Below the pieces are notes generated by a model, which was given only the letters and a program-made list of their open reading frames with translations, was not told where the DNA came from and ran no database searches. From positions 20,668-84,667 of IMG/VR virus record IMGVR_UViG_3300031963_000066: DNA of 64,000 bases; one strand, written 5' to 3'. Origin of the DNA: a virus. Below, one piece after another: positions 2,679 to 33,953 of this stretch; the stretch's first letter is position 1, and every line of letters starts with the position of its first letter. The translations under genes and the position numbers were made by a program.

Positions 2679-2692
2679 CCAATATGACAAAA

Positions 2693-2884
2693 TTAAGCTG
2701 ATGCTTGAATCGCTTCATCTTCAACAGCTGCTTCTGGTGGATTCATTATGTTTTGTGCAACCACTTGTTTGTGTGCTTCGATATGTGCCATCACTCTGTC
2801 TTGTAATGCAGAATACAAAGCATCACGCATTTCTTTTGCGCTGTCGTTTTCTGCATAGTCTAATATTTCTCTTGCTGTTGCCAT
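2693..2884 (-). CDS. Small prohead core protein (gp67-like)
   Basis: 63-aa acidic helical protein immediately after the portal gene, in the gp67 position; GGAG RBS. Confidence 0.6.
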   Translation of the reverse strand: MATAREILDYAENDSAKEMRDALYSALQDRVMAHIEAHKQVVAQNIMNPPEAAVEDEAIQASA

Positions 2885-2897
2885 GTTTATCTCCTAA

Positions 2898-4628: not shown

Positions 4629-4651
4629 ATTTTGTGTGTAATTATAAAATC

Positions 4652-4680
4652 AAAAAAACATGGAGGGCACAAGGCCCTCC
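4652..4680 (-). terminator. Rho-independent terminator after gp19
   Basis: Minus strand GGAGGGC-cttgt-GCCCTCC (7-bp stem) followed by ATG and T7, just after the gp19 stop. Confidence 0.8.
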
Positions 4681-4687
4681 TCATATA

Positions 4688-8702: not shown

Positions 8703-9112
8703 TCTTTACCTTTAAGTAACTTATTCAGTTCTGCGGTTGAACCAACAAAGATAGCTTTATCAATCTTAGTGTCACCTTCTTTTGGTTTGCCATCCATTGT
8801 ACGCATTTGTTTTTGTACCGCAAGTAGTTCTTTATTTGCATCCACCACATTCTTCAACAGTGTACCATACACCTCAAAGGCTCTAGGATGTTGGCCTGCT
8901 TTTGCAATGTTGAGTATTTCTTCCATGGCTTCTTTGCCCTGGTCGATAAGGTCTTGTAGATTATCTTTTGTTTGTTGATATGCATCTTCCAAATCATTCT
9001 TTAAATCTGGACCATCCTGAGATTTTGTAACCACCGGCAACAAAGGTTTTTCTTTTTGTTCTACCGGTGTTACATCAAATAATTTTTCCATGTTCTTGTC
9101 AAATGTATTCAT
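8699..9112 (-). CDS. gp16: Terminase small subunit
   Basis: HPRAFEV and IFVGSTAEL motifs; overlaps the gp17 start. Confidence 0.93.
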   Translation of the reverse strand: MNTFDKNMEKLFDVTPVEQKEKPLLPVVTKSQDGPDLKNDLEDAYQQTKDNLQDLIDQGKEAMEEILNIAKAGQHPRAFEVYGTLLKNVVDANKELLAVQKQMRTMDGKPKEGDTKIDKAIFVGSTAELNKLLKGKE

Positions 9113-9126
9113 AGTTTTTATATTAA

Positions 9127-10854: not shown

Positions 10855-10874
10855 TTGTTTCTCTCATTTGATGT

Positions 10875-11894
10875 TTATTGGTTTGCGGCCTTGTTAATTG
10901 TCAAGACTTCATTTAGTGTGTTATCGGTCTTAGCGTCAACTTTATCAACAGTCATAAAGTCGATATCTGTAGAAACTCTACCAACAGCATCAACTTCAAC
11001 AAATTTCAATGGGTTCAAATTATATGTGGTGAAGTTATAGTTTGCCAAAGTATTAACTCCATATATAGGTTTATCGGACACAAAGTTTCCTGTTAGTGAT
11101 TTTAATCTAAGTAGGTTGTCTGTAAATTGAACAACAATTCCTGTTGCTGTTGTATCATCTGATGTATATCCTTGATATACTTTTTCACCAACTTTATATG
11201 TACCAAAACCAGAATTTAAATTCAATGTAAATTCAACAACATCTTCTTCGGTAATTAAGTTGAACACTGAAACAAATGCACGATTGATGACACCAGTTTC
11301 TGTGGTTTTACCAAATACAAATCCTTTGACAGTGAAGTTTAATGTCCAGACTATCATTCTGGTTTCGTTCTCTCTACCACCTTCGTAAATAATTTCATGT
11401 GATGTTGAGTTTAAAATCACAGGTACTTCTTTAATAATCCCCATTTCAGGAATCAAATTCAATTTGATGGTGTAATCTGGTGTAAAGAATGGTAGTATGT
11501 GTTCAATGATTTGTGTACCATCTTCAATGTTTCGAACATATATGTACAGATTAAAATCAAAATTGTATGGTACTGGATTGTATTGTGCAATAACACCGGT
11601 CGCTGTATTTGTGCCTGCAAAATTTTTAATGTTGGTATTTTGTTTTCTACTTGAATCATAACTAAGACCGGCCATCTCAAACGACATTTTAGGTAAAGTT
11701 ACTTGAACTTTTTTATCTAATTGAGGATCACTCTCAAGGCGCATAACATATCGTTCTTTTGATGCATAAACAATAGGCACAATAAATCTCTCAGATTCGG
11801 TTTCGTCTGATTTGAATCTGTATAGTGTTATGTTGTCAAAAAGATTACCAAATCCAACAACTAATTTTCTGATGACACGGTTGTATGTTGACAT
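10875..11894 (-). CDS. gp15: Tail sheath stabiliser / tail terminator with C-terminal extension
   Basis: RKLVVGFGNLF, LPKMSFEM, PVPYN and QIIEHILPFFTP motifs. Confidence 0.93.
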   Translation of the reverse strand: MSTYNRVIRKLVVGFGNLFDNITLYRFKSDETESERFIVPIVYASKERYVMRLESDPQLDKKVQVTLPKMSFEMAGLSYDSSRKQNTNIKNFAGTNTATGVIAQYNPVPYNFDFNLYIYVRNIEDGTQIIEHILPFFTPDYTIKLNLIPEMGIIKEVPVILNSTSHEIIYEGGRENETRMIVWTLNFTVKGFVFGKTTETGVINRAFVSVFNLITEEDVVEFTLNLNSGFGTYKVGEKVYQGYTSDDTTATGIVVQFTDNLLRLKSLTGNFVSDKPIYGVNTLANYNFTTYNLNPLKFVEVDAVGRVSTDIDFMTVDKVDAKTDNTLNEVLTINKAANQ

Positions 11895-12775
11895 TATATT
11901 TTTCCAAACGGATTAGTTTCGGTGAAATCTATAATGTTATCGGCTTCATTGTCCAAATAATCATTGTCATAGGCTTCATTTCTTGTACTGTCTTTTAATG
12001 GATTATATGATGACAAATAGTATTGTGCATTGCTTGTTGCACCAATGATTGCAACATTGTTTGCAAACTCACCGGCAACATTTGTTACTTTTAATATATC
12101 ATTGACAGTGTTCCATTCTTGTACCATTGCAACCACTGATGCGTTTGCTTGTGTACCATCCCTAGATTGAAATACAATTTCTCTAGGTTCATATGTTCCA
12201 GTTCCAACACCAGTGTTCAAATCTATTGTATAACTTGATTGAATCATTATATCATCAATATCTTCCACACCAGTGTCGATAACTTCTTGTGAGTACTTGA
12301 ATTTCTCTAGTTCTAATTCGTAGAAATAAGGAATCTTGCGGCCTAACATGAAGAAGTCTTTGGTTTGATTGGTGAATTTAATTTCAAACAATTCACCGGT
12401 ACCATTTAAGAAAGGCACATAAATCAAATCACCTTCACGGGGTCTGGTGAATAGGTCTTGTGGTACTCTTTGAGAGAAAGAACGCTTTGATAGTATGATA
12501 TTGATATTGTTTTTAATCTCAAGACCAAATTTAGAAAAGAATTCTTTCTCGCCACCGTACTCCATTGAACTAGATAGATAGAACTCAATTGGAAAGGCCG
12601 AACCAAATCTTTTAATTGGATCTTCACCATATAGAATGTCTCTATCTTCTTCATTCTCAATAGGCAGGTAGTAGGCGTCATAACCTTGAATTTTAATACT
12701 TTCTACAATCAAATCTTCTATTACTCTCTGTTCAGCAAGAGAGTTGTAGTTGTTGAAATACACCGAGGTCGCCAT
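11894..12775 (-). CDS. gp14: Neck protein
   Basis: DLIVESIKIQG, FFSKFGLEI, RPREGDLIY and DFTETNPFG motifs. Confidence 0.93.
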   Translation of the reverse strand: MATSVYFNNYNSLAEQRVIEDLIVESIKIQGYDAYYLPIENEEDRDILYGEDPIKRFGSAFPIEFYLSSSMEYGGEKEFFSKFGLEIKNNINIILSKRSFSQRVPQDLFTRPREGDLIYVPFLNGTGELFEIKFTNQTKDFFMLGRKIPYFYELELEKFKYSQEVIDTGVEDIDDIMIQSSYTIDLNTGVGTGTYEPREIVFQSRDGTQANASVVAMVQEWNTVNDILKVTNVAGEFANNVAIIGATSNAQYYLSSYNPLKDSTRNEAYDNDYLDNEADNIIDFTETNPFGKI

Positions 12776-12779
12776 GATA

Positions 12780-13283
12780 TTATCCTAACTTTTCACAAAA
12801 ATAATTTTTGTGGTGTTTTCTTAAACCACTAGCCACAATTGACATTTTTGAACTATCCAAGTTATTTTCCTTACAATATTGTTGTAAATTTTTTATTTTT
12901 ATTTTTGTTCCGTCTGGTTTGGTTATTAACCAATTTCTACTATTACTCTCGGATATTTTATTTTTCCATTCACAAGGACGGCCTTTTAATGTCTCACTCA
13001 TTTTTAATTTATATTCATCAGACCATTTACGACCTAAATTTGCTTTGTGACCTACTGGTGGTCTAGATTTTTTACCAGACATTACAAATAGTTCGTGTAA
13101 CAATTCTTCTTTACCAATAATGCCAGCTAAACCTTTCCAAGCTAATTCATCTTGTTTATGTCCATATTTTTCCCACAAAACACGATGAGCTTCCGCATGT
13201 TCTTCTACGGTAAGTTCAATTAAATTGGACGGATCATTTGTTCCACCCATATGTTTTGGAATAATATGGTGTTGGTGTTTCAT
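12780..13283 (-). mobile_element. Free-standing HNH homing endonuclease with NUMOD3-like DNA-binding motif
   Basis: HHIIPKHMGGTNDPSNLIELTVEEHAEAH (HNH) and GRKWSDEYKLKMSETLKG (NUMOD3-like). Lys-rich, and wedged between gp13 and gp14 with 1-4 nt gaps. Confidence 0.88.
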
Positions 13284-13284
13284 A

Positions 13285-14061
13285 TTAGTTCATAAACATT
13301 TCTAGTGGTGCACCGTACTTGTCACCAATTTCTGCATGAAGGGCATCAATTTCTGTTTTTGCTTCCTCATAAATCTTATCACCATTCAACATGACACCAC
13401 CTGGTAATTGTATACCACTAAACTTTTTAAGGTTGTTGCCCCATGAACGCTTGATAAGTGCTGTTGCATACTCTTTTAACCAACGGTCGTTCCAGACATA
13501 ATTGTAATATTCTGGATTGATTGTTGCATAAGATTCCATGACAACAACAGTACCGACTGGTGCTTGTGAAGAACCCCAAGCCCAATCAATGAAAAGTTTT
13601 TTCATGTGTCTTTGATAACGGATTGGTATTTCACCAGTAAACATTAACTCCAATGAACGCAAATGTTGTTGTGTTAATGTATAGTTGATGTAAGATGCGG
13701 AAGTGAAATCGTACAATTCATTCAAACGCAATTGATATCTCAAGTCAAACATGTTGATTGATGCTGACGAATCTTGAATAGGGAAAATTCTAGTTATACC
13801 AACTATGTCAACAGAATTATTTGAATCGTCTGTAACATTAGTTAGATTTATATATTTGTTTTGAATGTCTGTCGCATCAAGTTTTTTGATGTAATATATT
13901 TTTTGTAGGCCATCAAAGTGGTAGTCTTGCCAATATTGAAGTGCATCATCAATACGGTCTTCTACCTGATCGTCATCAACGTTGATTTCGATTACTGGAA
14001 ACCCTAGTCTACGCAGGCAATAATCTTTGAATGCCGTTCTTGTTGTTATTGGTTGTGCCAT
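13285..14061 (-). CDS. gp13: Neck protein
   Basis: YCLRRLGFPVIEINVDDDQ, WLKEYATALIK and LPGGVMLNG motifs. Confidence 0.95.
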   Translation of the reverse strand: MAQPITTRTAFKDYCLRRLGFPVIEINVDDDQVEDRIDDALQYWQDYHFDGLQKIYYIKKLDATDIQNKYINLTNVTDDSNNSVDIVGITRIFPIQDSSASINMFDLRYQLRLNELYDFTSASYINYTLTQQHLRSLELMFTGEIPIRYQRHMKKLFIDWAWGSSQAPVGTVVVMESYATINPEYYNYVWNDRWLKEYATALIKRSWGNNLKKFSGIQLPGGVMLNGDKIYEEAKTEIDALHAEIGDKYGAPLEMFMN

Positions 14062-14080
14062 TATATCCCCCTATAAGGGG

Positions 14081-14088
14081 TATTTATG
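14081..14088 (-). promoter_or_regulatory. Late promoter (CATAAATA) for gp13, followed by an RBS-overlapping hairpin
   Basis: Minus strand reads CATAAATA CCCCT TAT AGGGG G ATATA ATG. Confidence 0.65.
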
Positions 14089-14117
14089 CATCATTGGTTG
14101 TTTCGTCAACTGATACA

Positions 14118-15047
14118 TTAATTGAATTTGATAGATCCTGAACCCGTAAATTTATATATTCTATACCCGGATAATATTGTATATGTAACTGTGCCTGTAG
14201 TTGTAGCTGCTGCGTAACCGGTTGGGTACTTGATAACTGCAATACCTGAACCACCGTTACCTGCATTAGTGCCGGCGCCGTTTTTCATACCACCACCGCC
14301 GCCGCCGGAATTTGTTCCGCCATTCCCACCAACAGTATTTGTTCCATTCTGGCCGCCGTTTGCACCTCCTGTGCCTCCAGCTGTTGAACTTCCTCCACCA
14401 CCACCACCTGCACCACCGTTGCCCGCTGTGCCGGTATTGACGCTGCCGCCACCGCCACCGCCGCAATAATATGTTGCAGTGCCTGTTATGGAATTTTGTA
14501 ATCCAATACCACCTGAACCTGCCACTGTGCCGCTTACACTATTTCCACCAACAGCACCTGCGCCGCCACCGCCGGCACCTGCCAAAGCAGTGCCTGATAC
14601 AAATGCATCACCTCCAGCATTTCCTTGACCTGTGATTGGTTCTCCACCCAAGTGGTCTGTTACGGAGCTACTAACTCCACCGCCACCTGAGGCGCCACTT
14701 CCTGGCCTTCTTGGATCCGTGTAGCCTCCAATGCCCCATCCACCGCCGTATGCATACAAAGAAAAACCAGTTGATGTGATTGAAGTGTCACCGCCTCGTT
14801 CTCCATTTGAAGAACTCGCACTGAAGACTCCTACCGCACCGGCGCCGCCGCCAGCAACGGTTACTGTATAGGTTACATTTTTTTTAAAAGTAAATTCACT
14901 CTGATAATTATAACCACCAGCACCAGCTCCTGCTGATCCACCTCCTCCACCTCCTCCAACCAGTAACATCTCAACTGTTATCAAATCACTACTTAAAGTA
15001 GTGTTTTTAGTGGATATTTTACTCTTAGATAAAGTTTTGATTGCCAT
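14118..15047 (-). CDS. Glycine-rich putative receptor-binding / fibre tip protein
   Basis: LLVGGGGGG, YCGGGGGG, GGSGIAVIKY and YKFTGSG motifs typical of polyglycine-rich phage adhesins. Confidence 0.7.
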   Translation of the reverse strand: MAIKTLSKSKISTKNTTLSSDLITVEMLLVGGGGGGGSAGAGAGGYNYQSEFTFKKNVTYTVTVAGGGAGAVGVFSASSSNGERGGDTSITSTGFSLYAYGGGWGIGGYTDPRRPGSGASGGGGVSSSVTDHLGGEPITGQGNAGGDAFVSGTALAGAGGGGAGAVGGNSVSGTVAGSGGIGLQNSITGTATYYCGGGGGGSVNTGTAGNGGAGGGGGGSSTAGGTGGANGGQNGTNTVGGNGGTNSGGGGGGMKNGAGTNAGNGGSGIAVIKYPTGYAAATTTGTVTYTILSGYRIYKFTGSGSIKFN

Positions 15048-15048
15048 G

Positions 15049-15378
15049 TTAGGTTATCTCACTACCGTAAGCGTGGAAACTTATTAATGCACTACTTGCA
15101 TTTACTGTGACAACATCAGTTGTTGCTAAAGTTAAACCAAGTGTTAATGATAACATATCATTTGCTGGTACAGGTGTGTCAAATGCCAAATAGTGTTGTG
15201 TAGCCAATGTTGCTCCTGCTGGACGAACAGCTACTTTAACTGTGCCGCCAGTGGCAGCCTGGTTACAAATAGAAAGTGTGGAAACAATTGTACTTGTTGC
15301 CGCAGGAACAGTGTAAAGAGTTGTTGCTGTGTTTGCTGCTGGATTTGATTGACCTAAAACTTTGTATGTTATTGCCAT
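15049..15378 (-). CDS. Small beta-rich virion adaptor protein (paralogue of 24882 and 27787)
   Basis: 109 aa; TTLYTVPA..STIVS..ICN; ends SEIT like its two paralogues. Confidence 0.65.
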   Translation of the reverse strand: MAITYKVLGQSNPAANTATTLYTVPAATSTIVSTLSICNQAATGGTVKVAVRPAGATLATQHYLAFDTPVPANDMLSLTLGLTLATTDVVTVNASSALISFHAYGSEIT

Positions 15379-15387
15379 GATTTTTCC

Positions 15388-15819
15388 TTATGCTCCCATT
15401 AACAAGAATGGATTGATTGTGTTTGTAGATCCACCACTACTTGCTGTGTTAGCAGCTGCAAAGGCCGCATTGGCCTGGTTAAATGCAAACGTGGCACTTG
15501 AACCAGAATTTGCTGCAGCGAAAGCCGCATTAGCTTGTAAGAACCCAGAATTGGCATATAAACTGGCTGAATTGGCTGCACCAAAAGCTGAATTGGATGT
15601 TAAAAATGCTCCATTGGCATATAAACTGGCTGAATTGGCTGCACCAAAAGCTGAATTGGATGTTAAAAATGCTCCATTGGCATATAAACCTGCACTAGTT
15701 GCACCACCGGCCGCATTGGCTGCTTCAAAAGCTCCATTGGCTTGAGCATATGCCGAACCAACCAACGATGAATAATCATACGATGTGTCTATATTCGGTA
15801 ATTTTATTTTTGTTGTCAT
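15388..15819 (-). CDS. Short ANxAF-repeat stalk protein
   Basis: MTTKIK N-terminus, ANSASLYANGAF repeats, and hydrophobic C-terminus NPFLLMGA. Confidence 0.7.
   Translation of the reverse strand: MTTKIKLPNIDTSYDYSSLVGSAYAQANGAFEAANAAGGATSAGLYANGAFLTSNSAFGAANSASLYANGAFLTSNSAFGAANSASLYANSGFLQANAAFAAANSGSSATFAFNQANAAFAAANTASSGGSTNTINPFLLMGA
15550..15689. repeat. Perfect 63-bp tandem repeat (about 2.2 copies) inside the 143-aa gene
   Basis: Unit attggcatataaactggctgaattggctgcaccaaaagctgaattggatgttaaaaatgctcc at 15550 and 15613, with a partial copy at 15676. Confidence 0.9.
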
Positions 15820-24885: not shown

Positions 24886-25241
24886 CTGATCTCCTCAAAC
24901 GAACACACTGCTTGTAATATACTATTGGTACTGGCCGTTAATCTCAATTCATCACCTTCTAACAGATAAATGGAAAGTGTTTTGTCAATGGCTGTGAAAG
25001 ATGTATCTGCTGCAACCGAAATGGTACTGACCAATTTATATGCAGTCGCACTTCTATACAAATCAACTGTTATGTCCGCTGCACTGGTTCCATGAATATT
25101 GGAAATAATCAAAGAATTAATTTTTAATATTTTACCACTGGATGAAGGATTGTTTGCAATAGAAGTCGCCGATGTTGTCACCGATTGTACTTGTGTGTTT
25201 CCATTAATTGTTGTTAGTGCTGCTATGTTTGGGTTTGCCAT
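24882..25241 (-). CDS. Small beta-rich virion adaptor protein
   Basis: 119 aa; MANPNIA..., YLLEGDELR, ends SFEEIS. Confidence 0.65.
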   Translation of the reverse strand: MANPNIAALTTINGNTQVQSVTTSATSIANNPSSSGKILKINSLIISNIHGTSAADITVDLYRSATAYKLVSTISVAADTSFTAIDKTLSIYLLEGDELRLTASTNSILQAVCSFEEIS

Positions 25242-25250
25242 TTTAAATCC

Positions 25251-27785
25251 TTAGAATCCGAAAACAATCGACATTGCAATTGCCTTTGATAATGATGTGC
25301 CACCTGTATTTGCTTGTGAGAATGCTGCATTGGCTTGAATGAATGCAGCATTTGCGGTGCTTCTAGCATATGTATCCGCACCGCCACCAGTATTTGCTTG
25401 TGCAAAGGCCGCATTAGCTTGTGAGTATGCTGCATTCGCCTGGTTAAATGCAGAACTGGAACTAGAACCAGAATTTGCAGTAGCGAATGCAGCATTAGCT
25501 TGTGCGTATGCTAAGTTTGCAGTATTTGCTGCATAAGGGTCTAGAGCACCACCGCCTGTTATCGTGGTCACTTCTACATTTGCACCATTTTCAAATGTAC
25601 TATCGAATGTTACTACATTACCAGAAACAGTATATGTGTCTCTAAGCTGTGTGATACCATCTACAACAGCAATTATATAATTTTCACTTGTTGGTGATGT
25701 ACTTAAAGTGAATGTTGTTGTTCCACCATTTGCAGTAAATCTATCAGAATAAATTGATACTGGTGTTCCTGATCCGCCACCAGTATTAGCTGCCGCAAAA
25801 GCTGCATTTGCCTGAGCAAAGGCTGCATTAGCATAAAGACTTACGGAGTTAGCAGTACCAAATGCTCCGTTAGCATATGTTCCTGCACTGGTTGCCTTAG
25901 CATCAACTGTATTAGCATATCCTATTGCATCGTTGGCATAACCAGATGCAGAATTAGCCGCACCAAATGCTCCGTTTGCATATAAACTTGCCGAGTTTGC
26001 GGCATCAAAGGCCGAGTTTGCCTGATTAAATGCAAAGCTGGCACTAGAACCAGAATTCGCAGCAGCAAAGGCCGCATTGGCATATAGGCTGGCTGAATTG
26101 GCTGCACCAAAAGCAGAATTTGACTGCAAGAAGGCACTGTTAGCATAATTAGATGCCGAGTTAGAAGAACCGAATGCACCGTTAGCAAATGTTCCAGCAG
26201 AGTTGGCCGAATCAAATACACTATTCACATAAGGCAATACATCAATGCCTTTGATTGTAATCGTTGTTGATTTTAGGTTTGCTTTTAATGTTGCAATCTT
26301 AAATGATGCATCATTAATATTGATGTTGTTATCACCACCAATTTCTGGTGTATATTCTTCAAAGAGCTGCCATTCTTTTGTGCCAGAATCTCTTATTAGT
26401 CCGGTGTGTGCATTGACACCATTGTTATAGTGGGATGCAAAACCAATATCTAAAATATCACCGGTGTAATTTCCGGTACCCATGATAAACAAAGTATCGT
26501 TTGCAACAATCTGTGTTGAACTGGTACTAAATGTATTGCCTAATATACTCAAGTTACCAGTAATAGAAACATCACCAGAAATGGTACCACCAGATGTATT
26601 AAATTTTAGGTTGGCTGTTGTAAAAGCACCATTGGCATAATTAGAAGCAGAGTTGGCTGCCGCAAAAGCACTATTGGCATAATTAGATGCTGAATTAGAA
26701 GCATCAAATGCTGCGTTTGCCTGGTTAAATGCAAAACCAGAACTTGAACCGGAGTTGGCTGCAGCAAATGCTGCATTAGCATATAGACCTGCACTTGTGG
26801 CTTTTCCATCTGCTGTATTAGCTGTTGTGAAGGCACCGTTGGCGTATAAACTGGCTGAATTGGATGAACCAAAAGATGCATTGGCCTGTGCAAAGGCACC
26901 ATTTGCATACAAACTTGCTGAGTTGGCCACCGCATATGCAGATATAGCAACATTACTTCCAACATTTGCGGTGTATTGAACAGTTCCGTCAGCAAATGTG
27001 ATGCCGTTTGCACTTGTTCCATTTATAGTTAATGCACCACCTATGGTTACATTTCCACCTATACCCGCACTACCAGTAACAACTATTGCACCACTGGTTG
27101 TCGTTGAAGAATTTGTTGTGTTTGTAAAGTAGGTTGTTTCTGTGAATGTTACAACACCAGTTACATTACCTCCAGTTTTAGGTAATGCATTATTGGCTGT
27201 TATGAAAGCACTATTAGCATACGATGAAGCCGAATTGGCTGCATCAAATGCGGCATTGGCTTGATTAAAAGCAAAGCTGGCACTAGAACCAGAATTCGCT
27301 GCAGCGAATGCCGCATTGGCTCTATCGAATGCTGAGTTTGAATTATCTGTAACTACTGGTACATTACTTAACAATTCACGAACTTGTATCACCGATCCGG
27401 TACTTGGTGCAGTTGTGAAAGTTAATGTTGTACCACTTACACTATAATCAACTATTGGATTTTGTGTAATACCATTATCAAAAACAAGAATACTATTTGA
27501 TGTAGTATTAGCTGTTACTGTAAATGCGGTTGTACTACCATCACCAGTAAATGTTCTTGTCAAATAATACAATGAAGCAGTATTACTACTTGTGATAATT
27601 GCATCATAAGCCAAGTTGGCTTGACTGAAAGCACCATTGGCATATATACTTGCTGAGTTTGCTGCACCAAAAGCCCCATTGGCAAATGAAGATGCTGAGT
27701 TAGCAGTTACAAATGCACCATTGGCAATTGAACTGGCTACCCTTACATCCTTCTTACTTTGGCTGCCAATGTAGGTGAATTGCAT
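25251..27785 (-). CDS. Multi-domain fibre/branch protein with ANxAF stalks and two F-T-G/A-D/N-G-x-T-T-x-F domains
   Basis: YIG motif near the N-terminus; FTGDGSTTAFT and FTANGGTTTFT domains; DIGF..HY domain; C-terminus KAIAMSIVFGF. Confidence 0.7.
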   Translation of the reverse strand: MQFTYIGSQSKKDVRVASSIANGAFVTANSASSFANGAFGAANSASIYANGAFSQANLAYDAIITSSNTASLYYLTRTFTGDGSTTAFTVTANTTSNSILVFDNGITQNPIVDYSVSGTTLTFTTAPSTGSVIQVRELLSNVPVVTDNSNSAFDRANAAFAAANSGSSASFAFNQANAAFDAANSASSYANSAFITANNALPKTGGNVTGVVTFTETTYFTNTTNSSTTTSGAIVVTGSAGIGGNVTIGGALTINGTSANGITFADGTVQYTANVGSNVAISAYAVANSASLYANGAFAQANASFGSSNSASLYANGAFTTANTADGKATSAGLYANAAFAAANSGSSSGFAFNQANAAFDASNSASNYANSAFAAANSASNYANGAFTTANLKFNTSGGTISGDVSITGNLSILGNTFSTSSTQIVANDTLFIMGTGNYTGDILDIGFASHYNNGVNAHTGLIRDSGTKEWQLFEEYTPEIGGDNNININDASFKIATLKANLKSTTITIKGIDVLPYVNSVFDSANSAGTFANGAFGSSNSASNYANSAFLQSNSAFGAANSASLYANAAFAAANSGSSASFAFNQANSAFDAANSASLYANGAFGAANSASGYANDAIGYANTVDAKATSAGTYANGAFGTANSVSLYANAAFAQANAAFAAANTGGGSGTPVSIYSDRFTANGGTTTFTLSTSPTSENYIIAVVDGITQLRDTYTVSGNVVTFDSTFENGANVEVTTITGGGALDPYAANTANLAYAQANAAFATANSGSSSSSAFNQANAAYSQANAAFAQANTGGGADTYARSTANAAFIQANAAFSQANTGGTSLSKAIAMSIVFGF

Positions 27786-27786: not shown

Positions 27787-28113
27787 TTATGTTATTTCCA
27801 ATAAACTTACAATAACATCGGCTGCCGAAGCATTACTTGTCGAAACTTTAAGTACATCTGCGGCTTCCATAACCAATTTTTGTTCACCACCAATTGTAAT
27901 CAGTGAATTGCCTGGTTCAATCTCAGCCATCTTAACCATATAGTAATCTGATCCACCAGAAGTCAATATCACATTGGCTGTTATGGTTGTGTTTAGTATG
28001 TTTGCGATTGTCATACCAATAACTGTAGTAGATACACCAGAATTAGCAGTATAGATGGTTTCTGCCGATGTTCCGACTGCTGCTCGTAGTTGATTTTTAA
28101 AAGTATTTGCCAT
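27787..28113 (-). CDS. Small beta-rich virion adaptor protein
   Basis: 108 aa; MANTFKN..., KLVMEAADVLKV, ends SLLEIT; AATAAATA at 28132-28139. Confidence 0.65.
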   Translation of the reverse strand: MANTFKNQLRAAVGTSAETIYTANSGVSTTVIGMTIANILNTTITANVILTSGGSDYYMVKMAEIEPGNSLITIGGEQKLVMEAADVLKVSTSNASAADVIVSLLEIT

Positions 28114-28142: not shown

Positions 28143-28763
28143 TCAACTAAAGGCGATTGTAAATGCAACAATGTCGGCGTTTACATCTAGTGCGGTCGTT
28201 CCTGTATTTGCCTTGGCATAGGCAGCATTCGCATGAGCAAAGGCCGCATTAGCAGATGCAGATGTAATGTTTTGTGATGCATATGCCGAATTGGCCGTTA
28301 GGAAAGCACTATTAGCAAAAGAACCGGAAGAATTGGCTGCATCATATGCGTTGTTGGCCTGTGTTCTGACCCAAGCATCACCACCAGTATTTGCTGTATT
28401 ATATGCCGCATTGGCATGACTAAATGCCGCATTGGCTCTATCAAACGCAGGACCAGGATCACTTCCACCAGACACTGATGCATTAATTGTGATTGTTTTT
28501 GTGGTTGTATTGGTACCGATGGTGATATTATCACCAGCAACAAAAGAGAGTGTGTCGGAACCACTAGTGGCCAATATTAAAGAACTATTGGCATTAATTG
28601 TGTCGAAAGAGAATTGGTTGGTGATATAGGATGTACCACCAAGACTGTTTTTGTAATACAGTTTACCATCGGCATAGTTAAGCGCCAACTCACCATTAGC
28701 TAGGCCTGTTGGTGTGTTTCCTGTGACGCCTGATTTTTTTAACCGTATTGCTGTATTTGACAT
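28143..28763 (-). CDS. Fibre segment: GELA-type N-terminal domain plus ANxAF stalk
   Basis: IRLKKS...LANGELALNYADGKLYYK; C-terminus IVAFTIAFS. Confidence 0.65.
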   Translation of the reverse strand: MSNTAIRLKKSGVTGNTPTGLANGELALNYADGKLYYKNSLGGTSYITNQFSFDTINANSSLILATSGSDTLSFVAGDNITIGTNTTTKTITINASVSGGSDPGPAFDRANAAFSHANAAYNTANTGGDAWVRTQANNAYDAANSSGSFANSAFLTANSAYASQNITSASANAAFAHANAAYAKANTGTTALDVNADIVAFTIAFS

Positions 28764-28767
28764 TTAC

Positions 28768-29457
28768 TTAGAACGTTCCGCCATCCTTGATTGGGCCATC
28801 AGTACCAATTAAACCTGTTAGGGTTGTTGGTACCACTTCTTTATTTAGCTCATCAATTTTTTTTCTTTTGGAAGGAGGTAGTTGTAAGTAATCAATTTTA
28901 GCAAGTAATTCGTCTATCTTGTTGTTGTATTCACTTTTTTCAGTTTCATGTTTCTGAATCAAACTATTAACATTATTTTCATATTGTACATTTAAAGCAT
29001 TCATTTTAACTTCAAATTCTGAACGAACCTGATTAGTTTCTTCTCTTGCTCTAACTAATTCACCTTTAAATGTTTCCACATGAGTGGCTTGATTCTTAAC
29101 ACTATCATAGTCACGAAATTTAGTAATCAATTCATCAATTTCGGTTCGATGTTTACTGTTTAAGTTGTTAACATCTGCACTTAATTTTGTTACAAGTTTT
29201 TCACTTTCAGATAATTTATTTTCCAATTCTTGAACAGCCTTACTTTGATTTGATTCACTGTTTTCTTTCAAATCTTGAATTGTTTTTTGCAACTCAAGAT
29301 TTGATTTTACTAACGCATCAATCTTTTCAGACTGTTCTTTCACAACTTCATCAGTTATTTTCGCATTCGCTTGCATTGAGATATTTCGAATAACACAATC
29401 TGTCATTGTGCTTGTCAAAGTCTCAACATAATAATTTAAATACTTCTCATTTGCCAT
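28768..29457 (-). CDS. Coiled-coil protein ending in DGGTF
   Basis: Long K/E/L heptad pattern; AGGAG RBS. Confidence 0.7.
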   Translation of the reverse strand: MANEKYLNYYVETLTSTMTDCVIRNISMQANAKITDEVVKEQSEKIDALVKSNLELQKTIQDLKENSESNQSKAVQELENKLSESEKLVTKLSADVNNLNSKHRTEIDELITKFRDYDSVKNQATHVETFKGELVRAREETNQVRSEFEVKMNALNVQYENNVNSLIQKHETEKSEYNNKIDELLAKIDYLQLPPSKRKKIDELNKEVVPTTLTGLIGTDGPIKDGGTF

Positions 29458-29502
29458 TTCAAACTCCTATCATAAAAAAATCTATTACATTATATAGTCA
29501 GC

Positions 29503-31425
29503 TTAGAATTGTCCTCCGTCTATTGCTGATGACCACACTGGTACACCTGCATCTGTGACTGTAAGAATTTGATTAGACCATGTTTGGTCTGCTGAACCGG
29601 ATGCAGCTGTAACAGCCAACGCATTTGTTCCATCACCGTATACGATACCTTTTGCGGTGAATGTTGCGGCACCTGTACCACCTTGAGCAACAGTCAAACC
29701 AGAAATGTCTGCCGCAGTTGCTGCTGTTACACGACCGTAAGCATCAACAGTCAATGAGGTGATTGTTTTTGCAGCACCCAATGTGCCTGTCAATGAATAA
29801 CCAGCATTAGCGATTGATTGAATTGCACCAGAACCATTACCAATCAACATTAGGCCACTAGTGAATGTTGATACACCAGTACCACCTTGTGTAACTGTTA
29901 GACCAGAAATATCTGCGGCTGTTGCAGCTGATACACGACCATATTCATCTACAGTCAACGATGTGATTGTTTTAGATGCACTTAATGAACCAGTTAATGT
30001 GTAAGTAACATTTGCAAGTTCTGACAAAGCGCCTGTACCATTACCAATAACAACTTTACCTGAAGTAAAAGTAGATTTACCTGTACCACCTTGGTCAACA
30101 TTTAGACCAGCAATTGCTTGGAATGTTGCAGCAGTTGTTCTGCCATATGAGTCAACAGTTACAGAAGTAATGGTGTTATTTTGTGCACCAGCACCTGTTG
30201 CAGTGAATGTACTGTTAGCAAGTACTTTTAGTGAATCGGTACCATCACCAATAACAATACCACCAGCAGTGAATGAACTTGCACCAGTACCACCGTTAGG
30301 TACTGTTAAGTCATCAGTTAGTGTTAATGATTTAAGTGTTGTTGCACCAGCAACATTCAAGGTACCAACTTGTAATACTGCTGCATTTGCCCATTGTGAA
30401 ATCAAATTAGATTTCAAGTTTGCTTGGCGGAAGCTTCCATCTGCAACGTTGATAACGTTACCTGTTGGTTCTATGTTGTAGTTGTCAAACAAATAGAAGA
30501 AACCATCACCTGCGTGGCGGAACAAACCGGCATGTCGGTCTGCACCATCATTGTAATGGCCGTAGAAACCAATATCGACTGCATCTGATGCATTGTTTTT
30601 ACCAAGTGCAATCAAGGAGTCTTCGACAGTAAGTGTTTCAACGTTGTATGTTGTTGATGTACCTAAGATGGACAAGTTACCACTGATGATAATGTTACCA
30701 TCAATTGTTTGTGTTAAACTAGCAGTATTTGCACGAACGACCGTGTTATCAACGTCAATAGTAACTGTATTATCTGTTACAGTTGATGTAAGGCCTGCAC
30801 CGCCAGAAATTGTAAATGTGTCGGTTGCTAGATTAACAACATCAGCTGTACCAGAATCAGCTGCAACAGTCAATGCAGTTGAGATTGTTGACGAATTTGC
30901 AATCGTCATAACACGGCCGTTTGCAGCTACCTGGATGATAGGTATAACTGTTGAACCACCGTAGAAACCAGGAGTAAGACCAGAAATTGAATTTAGTGCA
31001 GCACTTAATGTTGCGTTTGCAGTACCATTAAACAACTGTGCAGATGCGGTAATGTCACCACCAGTAACATCAATATATCTGTCTGTTTGGAATTGAGTTG
31101 CAGAGTTTGCGTTACCTGAGAAAAAGGTAGTACTTAATGTACCGCCATCAGAGAAACTAAGACTTCTAACGTTTGCATGACCAACAGCAATATTACCTGT
31201 TACACTTCGTTGAACAAGTGTGCCTCCAGTATTTGAACTGGTTGCAGCATCAATTGTTGATGTGTAGTATTGTCCACCAATATTAACAACACCTGTACCA
31301 GCAGGTGAGCCAATAAACATGGTATTGGATTGATATGAATAAGCTAATTCACCCGCTTGTAGACTGGCTGGTACGCCTGTGGTAAGGGAACGTCTAATTC
31401 TTAGTGTTGTATTTGCGCCTGCCAT
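29503..31425 (-). CDS. Tail fibre segment (640 aa)
   Basis: GELA N-terminal domain; repeated TITSxTVDxYGRxTAA and VxQGGTG units; ends IDGGQF; AATAAATA at 31469-31476. Confidence 0.75.
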   Translation of the reverse strand: MAGANTTLRIRRSLTTGVPASLQAGELAYSYQSNTMFIGSPAGTGVVNIGGQYYTSTIDAATSSNTGGTLVQRSVTGNIAVGHANVRSLSFSDGGTLSTTFFSGNANSATQFQTDRYIDVTGGDITASAQLFNGTANATLSAALNSISGLTPGFYGGSTVIPIIQVAANGRVMTIANSSTISTALTVAADSGTADVVNLATDTFTISGGAGLTSTVTDNTVTIDVDNTVVRANTASLTQTIDGNIIISGNLSILGTSTTYNVETLTVEDSLIALGKNNASDAVDIGFYGHYNDGADRHAGLFRHAGDGFFYLFDNYNIEPTGNVINVADGSFRQANLKSNLISQWANAAVLQVGTLNVAGATTLKSLTLTDDLTVPNGGTGASSFTAGGIVIGDGTDSLKVLANSTFTATGAGAQNNTITSVTVDSYGRTTAATFQAIAGLNVDQGGTGKSTFTSGKVVIGNGTGALSELANVTYTLTGSLSASKTITSLTVDEYGRVSAATAADISGLTVTQGGTGVSTFTSGLMLIGNGSGAIQSIANAGYSLTGTLGAAKTITSLTVDAYGRVTAATAADISGLTVAQGGTGAATFTAKGIVYGDGTNALAVTAASGSADQTWSNQILTVTDAGVPVWSSAIDGGQF

Positions 31426-31474
31426 GTTGTTATCCTTTTTATGTTAAATGGATTTAAATCCTATGATCTATTTA

Positions 31475-31711
31475 TTAAAATGTGCCACCGTCAAAGTCGC
31501 TAACCGTATTTAAAATAGTATTACTAATATATTCTGATCCACCAATGCTAATGATATTGTTGGTCCACAATTGACTTTCCACATTTAATGTGGAACTACC
31601 AATAAAAAGTGTATTGGAAAGAAAAGAGTAAGCTAATTCTCCGTCTGCTAGATTGCCAGGTGCCGTGTTCGCATATGAACGGAGAATCTGTATTGTTGTA
31701 TTAGATGCCAT
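31475..31711 (-). CDS. Minimal GELA-domain protein ending in DGGTF
   Basis: 78 aa; IQILRS...LADGELAYSF; homologous to the N-terminus of the 640-aa protein. Confidence 0.7.
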   Translation of the reverse strand: MASNTTIQILRSYANTAPGNLADGELAYSFLSNTLFIGSSTLNVESQLWTNNIISIGGSEYISNTILNTVSDFDGGTF

Positions 31712-32245
31712 TTAGAAGAACCCTGAATCAGCACCTTGGAAAGCCAAATAAGTTACTGAATTTGCTACTGCGGCCTGAATTGCTGCATCTGAAATTACAC
31801 CACCAACTGTTTGAACAGGCGCAAAACCACCAACCGGTGATACCACAATCGCAATCGGATTAGGATTAATGTCTGTTGGCGCAGCTGCAAATGAAATTGC
31901 ACCAGTTGTCGATTCAGCTTTGATCTGTGTTCCGTCCAAGTCAATTGTATTACCACTTAGATATAGACTTCGGAATTTATTTGTTCTACTGCCAAGGTCA
32001 AACGCTCTGGAAGATGTTGGTAATAGATTTCCGTGTACAGGAGTGTCGGTACCAAGGCCTCTGGCAGAAAATGTTTTGGTTTGTGAGTTATAGACAATTA
32101 CATCACCAGTGTTTGCGCCTTCCAAAGAAAGGTCAGTCAAACTCCTAAGTGTCTTTGTACCATAGGAAAGTGTTTGTACCTTAGTTTTTTGGCCTTCAAC
32201 TCTAACTTTTACGGTTGCAGGTTGTCTGACGGTTACCGTTGGCAT
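31712..32245 (-). CDS. Fibre-module structural protein
   Basis: LRSLTDL, GDVIVYN and FDLGS..KFRSLYLSGNTI fibre motifs; ends DSGFF; AAGGA RBS. Confidence 0.65.
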   Translation of the reverse strand: MPTVTVRQPATVKVRVEGQKTKVQTLSYGTKTLRSLTDLSLEGANTGDVIVYNSQTKTFSARGLGTDTPVHGNLLPTSSRAFDLGSRTNKFRSLYLSGNTIDLDGTQIKAESTTGAISFAAAPTDINPNPIAIVVSPVGGFAPVQTVGGVISDAAIQAAVANSVTYLAFQGADSGFF

Positions 32246-32254
32246 ATTATTCCT

Positions 32255-32596
32255 TTAAAATACTGTAACTTGGGGTAAGACGTTCACAACTCCCTCTAAA
32301 ACCCGTATGACTGTGTTTGAAGAATCTTTGATAATCACATCATACACATAACGGCCAGCAGAAATATTTGCCGTGTTTGCATAAGGTAAAGACAATATTA
32401 TAATGCCTTCTGTTGGATCATTAACTGTTATTACAAAATTAGCGGTTGTGCTACTAGAATAATATGATTTTTTCATGGCAGCTTTTACTTGGCTACCAGT
32501 TAGAGTAAAAGGTGAACCATCAGCTTGATCCAATGTGATGGATGTACTAAAGTTTGAACCTTGTTCTAGAAATAATTCTTGGTAACCAGCTGGCAT
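32255..32596 (-). CDS. Small Ig-like virion structural protein (BppU-N-like)
   Basis: LEQGSNF, GRYVYDVII and RVLEGVVNVLP motifs; has its own late promoter. Confidence 0.65.
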   Translation of the reverse strand: MPAGYQELFLEQGSNFSTSITLDQADGSPFTLTGSQVKAAMKKSYYSSSTTANFVITVNDPTEGIIILSLPYANTANISAGRYVYDVIIKDSSNTVIRVLEGVVNVLPQVTVF

Positions 32597-32720: not shown

Positions 32721-33953
32721 TTAAATATTATTTTTCAATTCTTTTACTTCTGCACGTAGTTCTTTAATACCCTCAATCAATAATGGAATTAACTTTTCAT
32801 AGCGTACTGTTAAGTATTTCTCATCAATAGGTGCGGGTACAACAACTCCGCAATCAGGTAATTGATTTTGAACCTGTTGCGCTGATACACCAATTTGACG
32901 CTGTTTTTTATATCCAAGTGATACTGCTAATTCATTTTCTTCGTAATAGAAACCGCTTAGTTCATCAATCTTGTCTAGTGCATTTTCAATTGCACCAAGT
33001 TTAGTTTTTAATCTGTCATCAGAATAATATGCAGTGATGTTATTGGTTGCACGAATTTCACCGTCAGTACCAGATGCCGGGGTGCCTATACCTAATCGTT
33101 TAAACTGTGGTGTATCACCTGTACCAATACCTTGGGGTGGTGAGTAGATAGCGGGGATGACGGGCCTTCCACTCAAATCTCCGTATGCTCCAGATGTTGC
33201 AACAGTTGCTAAACCAGAAACTGAACCGGCAGCAATTGCAATATTTGTTGCAGTTACAGATGTAACCCTACCTTTTGCATCGACATTGATTCTTGGAACC
33301 ACTGAAGCTGTACCGAATAATCCGGTGTTAGTGCCAGCATTACTTAATCTAGCATCTGGTAATGTGCCTGAATCGATATTACTAGCATTTGTTGTATCTT
33401 TGGTTGCCGAGGCTGCAAATGTTGGATAACCAGTGATTTGAGAAGTTGCAATTTGTATTGCAACATTTGATGCTCCGGTGATTCTTCCTTTTGCATCTAC
33501 TGTAACTTGACTGACGCTTGAAGCCGTACCATATGTTGTTGCGCTTACACCAGAATCGGCCAATCTTGCTGCAGCCAATGTACCAGAACCAATATTACCA
33601 GCATTTGTTGTATCTGTGGTTGCCGATGTGGCTAATCCTGAAACTGCACTAGAAGCAATTGCAATTGTAATGTTGGCCACTCCAGTTGCTCTACCTTTTG
33701 CATCCACTATAATTCTTGGTACAATACTTGCACTTCCATATGAACCTGATGTAGCACCAGTATCAGGCAACCTTGCATCAGCCAGTGTGCCACTAGTAAT
33801 TTGAGATGTAGATATATCAATAGTAGTATTGGTGACACCAGTAATTCTACCTTGTGGATCAACAACTATAACTGGTATTGCGGCACCAGTACCATGTGTA
33901 GCCGCTACAACAGCCGTATTTTCTAGAACTGATGGCGTAATCTTTGTTGTCAT
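32721..33953 (-). CDS. Tail fibre with C-terminal intramolecular chaperone (peptidase S74-like)
   Basis: Four VDxxGRxT repeats; ITAYYSDDRLK autocleavage motif; GVSAQQV and VRYEKLIPLLIEGIKEL. Confidence 0.85.
   Translation of the reverse strand: MTTKITPSVLENTAVVAATHGTGAAIPVIVVDPQGRITGVTNTTIDISTSQITSGTLADARLPDTGATSGSYGSASIVPRIIVDAKGRATGVANITIAIASSAVSGLATSATTDTTNAGNIGSGTLAAARLADSGVSATTYGTASSVSQVTVDAKGRITGASNVAIQIATSQITGYPTFAASATKDTTNASNIDSGTLPDARLSNAGTNTGLFGTASVVPRINVDAKGRVTSVTATNIAIAAGSVSGLATVATSGAYGDLSGRPVIPAIYSPPQGIGTGDTPQFKRLGIGTPASGTDGEIRATNNITAYYSDDRLKTKLGAIENALDKIDELSGFYYEENELAVSLGYKKQRQIGVSAQQVQNQLPDCGVVVPAPIDEKYLTVRYEKLIPLLIEGIKELRAEVKELKNNI

Follow-up and report, generated by a model that had tools for sequence, protein, structure and literature searches.

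Fibre genes of the window and their shared ends

The window, meaning the whole 64-kb stretch of DNA that was analysed, contains a block of genes, all on the minus strand, in which a short C-terminal tail and an N-terminal domain recur in neighbouring genes (Table 1). The source phage is marine T4-like. The tail, called the plug here, reads D[GS]G.F at the protein end and is carried by four consecutive genes encoding proteins of 177, 78, 640, and 229 aa, while the domain, called the socket, is a KRS..GELA domain at the start of the 78-, 640-, and 206-aa proteins. A six-frame scan of the window for ORFs of at least 40 aa found the plug at the end of only 4 of 355 ORFs and GE[LI][AG] within the first 60 residues of only 3 of 355, confirming the claim of an earlier note on this DNA that four consecutive proteins end in one short motif and three begin with a GELA-type domain. 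Its further claim, that a plug-ending gene directly precedes each GELA gene, also held, with intergenic gaps of 0 nt (177- to 78-aa gene), 49 nt (78- to 640-aa gene), and 4 nt (229- to 206-aa gene). Neither motif was present in the 113-aa gene, which falls within the span of 28143-32596, and the remaining 20.6 kb of the contig had zero plug or socket ORFs. A blastn search of the entire block against 50,697 phage records returned zero matches.

Table 1 Genes of the fibre block, in window positions, with their end motifs
Product	Position (strand)	Length (aa)	N-terminus	C-terminus	Remarks
LtfC-like beta-sandwich protein	32255..32596 (-)	113			Probable virion anchor (collar-type) for first chain member
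Putative adaptor	31712..32245 (-)	177	No socket	Plug, ..GADSGFF	
Putative minimal connector	31475..31711 (-)	78	Type-1 socket (residues 1-~45), start ..IQILRS..LADGELAY	Plug, ..FDGGTF	
Putative fibre shaft	29503..31425 (-)	640	Type-1 socket, start ..LRIRRS..LQAGELAY	Plug, ..PVWSSAIDGGQF; C-terminus ..IDGGQF	
Coiled-coil protein	28768..29457 (-)	229	No socket	Plug, ..DGPIKDGGTF	
Putative distal piece	28143..28763 (-)	206	Type-2 socket (gp37-like, GELALNYADGKLYYK), start ..IRLKKS..LANGELAL		
Small protein	27787..28113 (-)	108			After greasy-end gene; phrog_1276, E 3e-9

The 113-aa protein matched phrog_3304 ('L-shaped tail fiber protein assembly', E 5e-19) and phrog_1084 (E 9e-24) and, weakly, the Pfam LtfC family PF23926 (E 0.0036, 18.3 bits, under the cut-off of 27), and homologues of ~112-118 aa stand at the head of the equivalent module in P-HM2, Mosig, DC31, and a Ralstonia phage. 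The arrangement resembles the LtfC collar/LtfA attachment of the T5-like phage DT57C in that a small beta-sandwich protein is encoded at the head of the row of fibre genes. The collar role of LtfC is known, and in DT57C it binds fibre termini by strand augmentation, with short strands extending the partner sheet (PMC10713586).

Counterparts of the 177-aa adaptor elsewhere are 73-92 aa long and end in INGGSF, INAGAF, ESGQY, or TDGGNF; across the window clade, the plug variants of the adaptor always precede an 'ILRSYANT' socket. The 78-aa protein, which scored 66 bits with the socket HMM (its sequence belonged to the training set of that HMM), has homologues of 64-78 aa at 13 IMG/VR loci. The earlier note had described it as little more than the two motifs, and it does consist of domain and tag only. 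In an AF2 monomer model, residues 1-60 had pLDDT values of 75-85 and the tail, residues 73-78, fell below 50, the plug being the sole disordered part; a Foldseek search of this model against the PDB gave nothing at E 0.001 or better. The 78-aa gene is missing from L024, one of the sampled loci, and from the P-HM2 clade, both of which retain the adaptor plug and the shaft socket. Judged by this gene content, the connector is optional, and in these phages the adaptor would plug directly into the long fibre.

The 640-aa shaft protein matched phrog_15769 at both ends, and its final 65 aa are 63% identical to PHM2_092 of P-HM2. For the 229-aa protein, Pfam and PHROGs returned only weak, generic coiled-coil matches, and candidate roles are an assembly helper, a second mount, or a branch. 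A coiled-coil gene between the long fibre gene and the type-2 socket gene is kept in all clade members, the P-HM2 clade version being 68-71 aa long and ending in ..DGPDDF. The 206-aa protein (socket HMM, 62 bits) also contains alanine-rich repeats and has a greasy end, ..VAFTIAFS. Genes of the 108-aa type always follow genes with ..AFTIAFS ends (12 loci), and the 108-aa protein may help to form a joint of a second type, to the 844-aa fibre (25251-27785). BLASTP and hhalign established no mutual homology among the 108-, 119-, and 109-aa proteins. The fibre chain probably continues past 28143-32596, with the LtfC-like anchor upstream and what may be a second kind of joint downstream.

The gp36-gp37 joint of T4 and the socket family

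The long tail fibre of T4 has been known for decades to be an assembly of separate trimers. Within it, the gp36 trimer binds the N-terminal region of gp37, and the two proteins are reported to join directly (PMC3004832). A socket HMM built without T4 matched gp37 residues 6-42 (30 bits, E 1.7e-10), and the single match of the 19-sequence profile A6 in the whole T4 genome was the start of gp37 (38.3 bits, E 1.8e-10). With a looser plug pattern, [DNES]xGx[FY] at the ORF end, which has a stray rate of 2 per about 3,200 ORFs in seven complete phage genomes, the sole T4 ORF of 565 with such an end was gp36 (..VQDFGYY), located 8 nt upstream of gene 37. The same gp36-gp37 pattern was repeated in VR26 and Ac42 (..VLDYGTY).

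The T4 distal half-fibre is like the window in that its downstream protein opens with a homologous domain, its upstream protein ends in D-x-G-x-aromatic (DFGYY in gp36; DSGFF, DGGTF, DGGQF, and DGGTF in the window), its plug and socket genes are adjacent and co-directional, and its gene order is the physical order; gp37, like the 206-aa protein, has a type-2 socket and lacks a plug. The joint is used once in T4 and three times in series in the window, however, and T4 has no counterpart of the 78-aa socket-plus-plug protein. The window in turn has no gp35-type kneecap (the T4 series being gp34-gp35-gp36-gp37), carries a fourth plug on a coiled-coil protein, and has plug-bearing proteins that are not gp36 homologues; T4 gp36 scored 178 bits against PF03903 (Phage_T4_gp36), whereas the 177-, 78-, 640-, and 229-aa proteins had no match to this family at E 1, so that the tail alone is common with gp36. 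Neither gp36, nor the gp37 N-terminus, nor the socket profile retrieved a relevant entry in sequence searches of the PDB. For the T4 distal rod, a map at low resolution has been reported (bioRxiv 10.64898/2026.03.06.709160). Because the tag and domain of neighbouring genes in the window are the pair found at the gp36-gp37 joint, the window fibre is very probably assembled by clipping separate proteins to one another.

The socket domain, for which Pfam has no dedicated model, forms a family of 18,530 clusters. Two subtypes differ in what they carry at the other end. Type-1 sockets (GELAYS) were found in 43 database representatives, 24 of which are also plug-ended, whereas none of the 106 representatives with type-2, gp37-like sockets (GELA(L/I/V)N) is plug-ended and 7 of these have IAFTIAFS/IVFGF-type ends. 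Since GELAYS proteins are usually plug-ended, they would be middle links, and the GELA(L/I/V)N proteins, never plug-ended (0/106), would be distal pieces.

Mtd_N (PF18454), the domain at the N-terminus of the major tropism determinant of Bordetella phage BPP-1 and also at the start of many phage fibres, for example Syn9 gp108, is probably a distant relative of the socket. Like the socket, Mtd_N lies at the extreme N-terminus of trimeric fibre or receptor-binding proteins and has a similar length and strand pattern. With hhalign, profile A6 aligned to the Syn9 gp108 N-terminus with a probability of 93% (E 2.4e-7) and to BPP-1 Mtd with 1.5%, and the Pfam cut-off for Mtd_N was passed by Syn9 gp108 (58.5 bits) and by the type-2 relative P0262 (27.0 bits). 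None of the three window N-termini matched the Mtd_N Pfam model up to E 10, and the socket HMM did not match BPP-1 Mtd in HMMER. When the 78-aa model was compared by VIA-align with 48,161 chains, the best match was Mtd (1yu0_A, residues 5-49; rmsd 2.6 A over 42 aligned residues) at a Z of 2.6, far below significance. BPP-1 Bbp9, which ends in ..ADLGGIA and lies before Mtd, was considered as a plug protein and rejected, as its resemblance to a plug is loose and the socket HMM misses Mtd.

Recurrence, adjacency, and fusions across phages

Pairing of plug and socket was found in at least 12 phage lineages that include myo-, sipho-, and podoviruses, namely the window clade, the P-HM2 clade, Mosig, DC31, three further sampled loci (L050, L059, and L063), the Ralstonia phage, siphovirus S-CBS2, the Zobellviridae Vibrio phage 1.293.O, Motura, S-B43, and the T-even phages. 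A tblastn match in Mycobacterium phage Bongo was spurious. Among 548 adjacent gene pairs from 81 loci, 71 had both plug and socket, 41 a plug only, 7 a socket only, and 429 neither, giving an odds ratio of 106 (p 3e-51) for pairs that are not phylogenetically independent and are largely syntenic relatives. Adjacency of DGGxF-ending and GELA-starting genes beyond chance, proposed in the earlier note as a check, is thus present. All 41 plug-only pairs represent the order of shaft plug, then coiled-coil gene, then socket, and, of the socket-only pairs, six reflect a DMGFF variant outside the pattern and one a gene-calling miss.

The numbers of plugs and sockets, with plugs counted in six-frame ORF scans, match in the complete genomes of T4 (1/1), P-SSM2 (2/2), P-HM2 (2/2), DC31 (2/2), and the Ralstonia phage (2/2, plus one stray plug). 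They are mismatched in the window clade (4:3), the Vibrio phage (3:2), and S-CBS2 (2:3), the contigs of relatives having, like the window, four plugs and three sockets. In P-SSM2, the shaft plug and the sole free socket (PSSM2_293) are separated by 113 kb, and 6 of 16 sampled phages have a type-2 socket gene with no neighbouring plug gene. Covariation of plug and socket is anecdotal, with DAGNFS found with GELG in one clade and DAG with GELA in L024 and L050.

Natural fusions of plug to socket in one ORF, a further check named in the earlier note, do occur. A second, internal socket was present in 6 of the best 150 representatives, and in all five complete fusions (I/L)(D/S)(G/A) is found 7-9 residues ahead of the first strand of the internal socket, as in the junctions TIDGEDN|TILLKRS, YIDGNEPNK|IYLKRS, and SLDGESAK|ITLK... 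The terminal aromatic of the plug is not retained in these fusions. An AF2 monomer model of the double-socket fusion P0002 had a mean pLDDT of 61.5, with junction residues 54-67 below 50, and was uninformative on contact in cis.

A fibre probably built from separate polypeptides

We consider it likely that the genes of the block together specify a single virion fibre made of several proteins, which are linked end to end through three copies of the gp36-gp37 joint. At each joint, the upstream trimer would contribute a tail of ~10 residues (aromatic-x3-hydrophobic-D-(G/A/S)-G-x-F/Y-COOH), and the downstream trimer would present its start, a beta domain of ~45 residues ((I/L)x(I/L)(K/R)(R/K)S ... 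P..L..GELA), on which the tail docks; we infer both this contact and the order of assembly. The predicted chain runs from the LtfC-like 113-aa anchor through the 177-aa adaptor, the 78-aa connector, and the 640-aa shaft to the 206-aa distal piece, which probably bears further parts via a different, greasy-tail joint. The 78-aa protein, called a minimal extender in the earlier note, is supported as a pure connector, and would serve as a 'gender changer' that fits the FF-type tail of the adaptor to the shaft. The joint itself could be a split beta-hairpin, formed by pairing of the last strand of one protein and the first of its successor, or the three terminal aromatics could cap a beta-prism, with contacts between the conserved K/R and the carboxylates. 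Strand augmentation of the T5 type is one possible geometry for the window plug, although the T5 joint differs from that in the window in placing a fibre N-terminus on a 12-mer ring rather than a C-terminal tail on a trimeric N-domain. The proposal of the earlier note, that the fibre is joined from separate polypeptides in gene order, is thus partly supported, for the end-to-end joints, by gp37 homology, the gp36 tag, adjacency, and fusions, whereas gene order is not universal, given the distant pair in P-SSM2 and the 6 of 16 phages in which no plug is adjacent.

It is unlikely, in our view, that the motifs, though real, make no contact with each other, the tail serving as a cap in folding or trimerisation or as a tag for an assembly chaperone, the domain a general attachment to another part of the virion, and the adjacency an inherited gene order. 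Such a reading would fit the debt of the adjacency statistic to syntenic relatives, the several type-2 socket genes with no plug gene nearby, the surplus plugs that have no sockets, and Syn9 gp108, a true Mtd_N protein that, unlike the sockets, follows coiled-coil genes without a plug. It does not sit well with plug proteins of unrelated bodies (fibre, 78-aa stub, coiled coil, and gp36) sharing one tail wherever a socket gene comes next, in myo-, sipho-, and podoviruses alike, with the only plug of T4 being on the protein known to bind gp37, with the one orphan plug and one orphan socket of P-SSM2, with fusions that place the motif immediately ahead of a socket, or with a 78-aa protein made of the two motifs and nothing else.

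Docking of the tail on a third component that holds both partners, such as a small coiled-coil protein, the LtfC-like anchor, or a baseplate protein, appears quite improbable. The coiled-coil gene between the shaft plug and the type-2 socket in marine T4-like phages is consistent with it, as are the reported binding of T4 fibritin near the gp36-gp37 junction (PMC3004832) and the way in which DT57C LtfC holds fibre termini by strand augmentation (PMC10713586), but no gene intervenes between plug and socket in DC31, the Ralstonia phage, S-CBS2, the Vibrio phage, Motura, or T4, joints one and two of the window have no coiled-coil gene, and the joining of gp36 to gp37 in T4 is reported to be direct (PMC3004832). 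We give very little credence to the conserved gene ends being DNA-level recombination linkers for the swapping of fibre cassettes, with no protein contact. The motifs do fall exactly at gene boundaries, and the protein bodies that they flank are mosaic and vary greatly; against this, many synonymous sites differ among the three socket starts of the window, which have no long identical DNA in common, conservation is at the protein level between phages with no DNA similarity detectable by blastn, and the motif is preserved as protein in both T4 and cyanophages.

Sequence features that join gp36 to gp37 are absent from Pfam and the PDB, and no description of them was found in the literature searched; the E217 and RBPseg papers contain nothing about a joint of this type. 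The direct joining of end motifs favoured here links the T4-type joint with a tail that is short and recognisable and with a start domain of ~45 residues, present in about 18,500 clusters and in myo-, sipho-, and podoviruses, and provides a residue-level, testable hypothesis for the gp36-gp37 joint of T4. It also offers an annotation route for many fibre genes now listed as 'hypothetical', with predictions of which piece sits on which, and suggests 78-aa adapter-like proteins as natural connector parts for engineering phage host range in laboratory systems. More tentatively, and with considerable doubt, tail and domain might constitute a portable, typed connector code in thousands of tailed phages, comprising adaptor tails, type-1 'middle' and type-2 'distal' sockets, and orthogonal variants, GFF tails for the LRSY socket being one example. 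If this were true, the wiring of multi-protein fibres would be readable from sequence alone, tiny genes like that of the 78-aa protein would be natural adapters that move a fibre onto a new base, and surplus plugs, that of the 229-aa coiled-coil protein among them, would give the same distal piece a second mounting site on the virion.

The fibre block and its counterpart in T4

The window derives from a T4-like marine myophage, whose incomplete genome is a contig of 84.7 kb; all of the portal, sheath, tube and baseplate genes are on the minus strand. Inspection of the open reading frames (ORFs) showed that the earlier note had correctly described the lengths, motifs and adjacency of the plug proteins (short C-terminal tail of the D(G/S)GxF type) and socket proteins (N-terminal KRS..GELA domain of about 45 residues). 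Among the 355 window ORFs of at least 40 aa, D[GS]G.F ends occur only in the 177-, 78-, 640- and 229-aa proteins and GE[LI][AG] near the start only in the 78-, 640- and 206-aa proteins, and an ORF scan of the remainder of the contig found neither plug ends nor GE[LI][AG] starts.

Coordinates of the fibre block, neighbouring window genes and sites in related phages
Genome	Feature	Position	Strand	Remarks
Window	410-aa fibre	32721-33953	-	Peptidase_S74 intramolecular chaperone domain at the C-terminus (E 1.4e-8); shares a ..(V/T)VD..GR(V/I/A)T.. repeat with the 640-aa shaft, about four copies each
Window	113 aa, LtfC-like beta-sandwich	32255-32596	-	first in transcription order
Window	177-aa adaptor	31712-32245	-	ends ..GADSGFF
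Window	78-aa connector	31475-31711	-	starts ..IQILRS..GELAY..; ends ..FDGGTF
Window	640-aa shaft	29503-31425	-	starts ..LRIRRS..GELAY..; ends ..IDGGQF
Window	229-aa coiled coil	28768-29457	-	ends ..KDGGTF
Window	206-aa distal piece	28143-28763	-	starts ..IRLKKS..GELAL..; greasy tag ..VAFTIAFS
Window	108 aa	27787-28113	-	
Window	844 aa	25251-27785	-	greasy tag ..AMSIVFGF
Window	119 aa	24882-25241	-	
Window	2283 aa	18034-24885	-	TTG start as listed; 4-nt overlap with end of 119-aa gene
Window	143 aa	15388-15819		greasy tag ..NPFLLMGA
Window	109 aa	15049-15378		
Window	167-aa HNH-type endonuclease-like ORF	12780-13283	-	..HHIIPKHMGG..; amid structural genes
ACG-2014f (L089)	endonuclease gene	4395-4769		upstream of type-2 socket gene
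S-CAM7 (L095)	endonuclease gene	2362-2763		upstream of type-2 socket gene
P-SSM2 (L096)	endonuclease gene	2565-2936		upstream of type-2 socket gene
S-CBS2 (L087)	'head decoration protein'	2798-3922		starts with socket; ends ..VEIDGGTF
S-CBS2	third socket	25127-27178		no plug nearby
P-HM2 (L001)	68-aa coiled-coil ORF, conserved	8176-8382		overlaps next gene by 62 nt, other frame
P-HM2 (L001)	2423-aa 'gp7'	8321-15592		annotated giant 'baseplate wedge initiator'; begins with gp37-type socket

A first socket HMM, built from 9 marine and freshwater sequences, matched residues 6-42 of T4 gp37 (30 bits, E 1.7e-10) as well as VR26 gp37, and the 19-sequence socket profile A6 gave a single match in the whole T4 genome, at the start of gp37 (38 bits). 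In a six-frame scan of T4, one of 565 ORFs of at least 50 aa ended in [DNES]xGx[FY], and this was gp36 (..VQDFGYY), the end of its gene lying 8 nt upstream of gene 37. Likewise, the gp36 tail ..VLDYGTY of Acinetobacter phage Ac42 precedes the gp37 socket. The gp37 match and the unique gp36 tail together indicate that the window motif pair is, judged from sequence, the signature of a joint known by experiment in T4. Sequence searches of the PDB turned up no solved gp36, no gp37 N-terminus and no socket of any kind, and a 2026 preprint models the T4 distal rod at low resolution only. Pfam has no family on gp37 residues 1-200, so that the socket is uncovered, as is the gp36 tail, where the PF03903 match stops at residue 195.

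The gene row in other phages

No DNA-level relatives of the block were found in the phage collection (blastn, 50,697 phage records), and protein searches turned up the same gene row in phages that differ widely. The row of Prochlorococcus phage P-HM2 consists of a 112-aa LtfC-like protein, 73 aa (..INGGSF), 561 aa (socket and ..IDGGTF), a 68-aa coil and 2423 aa with a socket; that of Limnohabitans phage DC31 consists of 92 aa (..ESGQY), 589 aa (socket and ..IDGGTY) and 118 aa with a socket, and in Achromobacter phage Motura ..FDRGTF is followed by a socket. The row is also present in Pelagibacter phage Mosig, a 40-kb Ralstonia phage, cyanosiphovirus S-CBS2, S-B43 and Vibrio podovirus 1.293.O (Zobellviridae). 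All 119 socket matches in the related loci lie at the extreme N-terminus with a start codon. The S-CBS2 gene for a 'head decoration protein' is flanked by two further members of the chain and more likely encodes a segment of the fibre.

The adjacency of plug and socket genes proposed in the earlier note was borne out among 548 neighbouring co-directional gene pairs from a crude gene call, with 71 pairs of plug then socket, 41 with plug only, 7 with socket only and 429 with neither (odds ratio 106, p = 3e-51, among loci that are kin). In all 41 plug-only pairs a small coiled-coil gene separates the shaft plug from a socket gene; six socket-only pairs reflect a DMGFF variant outside the search pattern and the seventh a gene-calling miss. 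Since the loci are relatives and were selected via a plug-bearing gene, the p-value overstates independence; the fairer gauge is how many separate lineages show the pairing, which is at least 12. In a second sample, of type-2 socket matches (GELA(L/I/V)N..DGKLY, gp37 included) picked irrespective of plugs, a plug gene lay upstream in 10 phages, directly or beyond one small coil gene; 6 cyanomyoviruses had no such upstream gene, and the socket of Brevundimonas phage Bajun is internal to a giant protein (..HTVDGYVENG..LRFKRS). An HNH/endonuclease gene lies directly upstream of a type-2 socket gene without an adjacent plug gene in 3 cyanomyoviruses, and mobile endonucleases may mark or cause a break in fibre gene order.

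Plug-ended ORFs and sockets were also counted in seven complete phage genomes, giving 1 and 1 in T4, 2 and 2 in P-SSM2, P-HM2 and DC31, 2 (plus 1 stray) and 2 in the Ralstonia phage, 3 (plus 1 stray) and 2 in the Vibrio phage, and 2 and 3 in S-CBS2. The most telling case is P-SSM2, where just two of 769 ORFs carry plugs, those of the 75-aa adaptor and of the 527-aa shaft; next after the shaft plug come a coil gene and, beyond it, the neck genes, without any socket, and the only remaining socket of the 252-kb genome is 113 kb off, on PSSM2_293 ('phage tail fiber-like protein'). This orphan plug and orphan socket are compatible with pairing in trans, and show that plug and socket genes, though usually adjacent, need not be so.

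Fusions, fold and alternative explanations

A search of 1.84 billion representative proteins with A6 matched 18,530 at E <=0.001 and 1,562 at E <=1e-10. The socket is N-terminal in all of the best 150 of the 18,530, and 6 of these 150 carry a second, internal socket. Natural plug-socket fusions, which the earlier note had proposed looking for, are present: all five complete internal sockets are preceded by plug-core-like residues (..YIDGNEPNK/IYLKRS.., ..KTIDGEDN/TILLKRS.., ..HSLDGESAK/ITLK.., ..KTISGNSNT/LVLRNS.. and ..FTIDANTSNK/LLLKRS..; the slash marks the start of the first strand), with a hydrophobic-D-G core 7-9 residues ahead of that strand and the plug's terminal aromatic missing. The Bajun sequence given above is of the same kind. 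This spacing resembles that of a beta-hairpin, and the separate proteins would be the same hairpin cut at its turn.

The AF2 model of the 78-aa protein (29-row alignment) had a mean pLDDT of 74.5, with beta strands at residues 26-55 and values below 50 for the tail (73-78). The AF2 model of the double-socket fusion P0002 was poorer (mean pLDDT 61.5), with junction residues 54-67 below 50. Foldseek found no match to it in the PDB at E <=0.001, and the best VIA-align hit among 48,161 chains was Mtd (1yu0_A residues 5-49) at Z 2.6, far below significance, with HylP1 (2c3f residues 7-64) at Z 2.1. By hhalign, the socket profile aligned at 93% probability with the Syn9 gp108 N-terminus, which clearly belongs to Pfam Mtd_N (58.5 bits), and the type-2 relative P0262 is barely above the Mtd_N cut-off. 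The window socket domains matched nothing in Pfam even at E 10, and BPP-1 Mtd gave no alignment with the socket profile. We read the socket as belonging to an Mtd_N-like superfamily, as a branch that has diverged and has no model of its own.

That the motifs are DNA-level recombination linkers is unlikely, as many synonymous sites differ between the window's three socket starts. Inherited synteny of plugs and sockets that do not touch hardly fits the T4 gp36-gp37 result, the P-SSM2 orphans, the natural fusions and a 78-aa protein composed of the two motifs alone, and a third-party bridge is not needed in the many phages whose plug and socket genes abut. The preferred reading is that separate fibre proteins would be joined end to end by plug-socket joints of the T4 gp36-gp37 kind.

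Probable anchor, coiled coil and proposed order of the chain

For the 113-aa protein there is a match to PHROG 3304 ('L-shaped tail fiber protein assembly', E 5e-19) and a weak one to Pfam LtfC; LtfC in DT57C/T5 is a 12-mer collar that grips the fibre by strand augmentation (PMC10713586). Because its homologue comes first in the module in five lineages, the 113-aa protein is likely the chain anchor. Marine T4-likes keep a coiled-coil gene between those of the shaft and the type-2 socket protein. Its product measures 68-72 aa in P-HM2 and P-SSM2, against 78 aa in S-B43 and 215-254 aa in the window clade, and carries a canonical plug in the last two. Exactly three sockets are present on relatives' contigs of up to 104 kb, so that, within the limits of these incomplete genomes, the imbalance of four plugs to three sockets is genuine, and the Vibrio phage has a comparable plug surplus. 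Candidate roles for the 229-aa coiled coil are an assembly helper collecting three N-termini, an additional mount on which the distal piece would sit, or a branch.

Fibre proteins with greasy C-terminal tags each precede a protein of about 108-119 aa ending ..EI(T/S), and then the next fibre. Mosig has ..AYSIVFGG then 115 aa (..SILEIS), and P-SSM2, S-T4 and S-8S53 have ..LILALGGE then 113-117 aa (..ILET..). Tag and small protein are possibly a second joint type; BLASTP and hhalign established no homology among the small proteins (108, 119 and 109 aa). In the 2283-aa protein a ~200-aa module that contains YFDGTGDYL and has a concanavalin/LamG-like look recurs about ten times.

Among database representatives, 24 of 43 type-1 proteins (GELAYS) are also plug-ended, most others being truncated metagenome fragments, compared with 0 of 106 type-2 proteins, 7 of which have greasy C-terminal tags of the IAFTIAFS/IVFGF type. 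Several short metagenome 'proteins' (P0040, P0050, P0056, P0100, P0137 and P0152-P0154) have C-termini that are translations of sequencing adapters (..GRASCRERV, ..IGRAHV, ..CLLYTSPSPRD), artefacts that lower the apparent plug-ended share of type 1. Within the window clade, FF-type adaptor tails (DSGFF, DAGFF, DMGFF) invariably stand ahead of an IQILRSYANT socket and the DGGxF tails of the 78-aa protein ahead of an I(L/R)IKRS socket, anecdotal hints that tail and socket pairs may be orthogonal. The split in plug ends between the two types points to a chain in which a plug-bearing adaptor would be followed by n type-1 proteins, each ending in a plug, and then by a type-2 protein, with n = 2 in the window. 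In the related locus L024 and the P-HM2 clade n = 1 and the 78-aa gene is missing, which singles this protein out as an optional, inserted connector.
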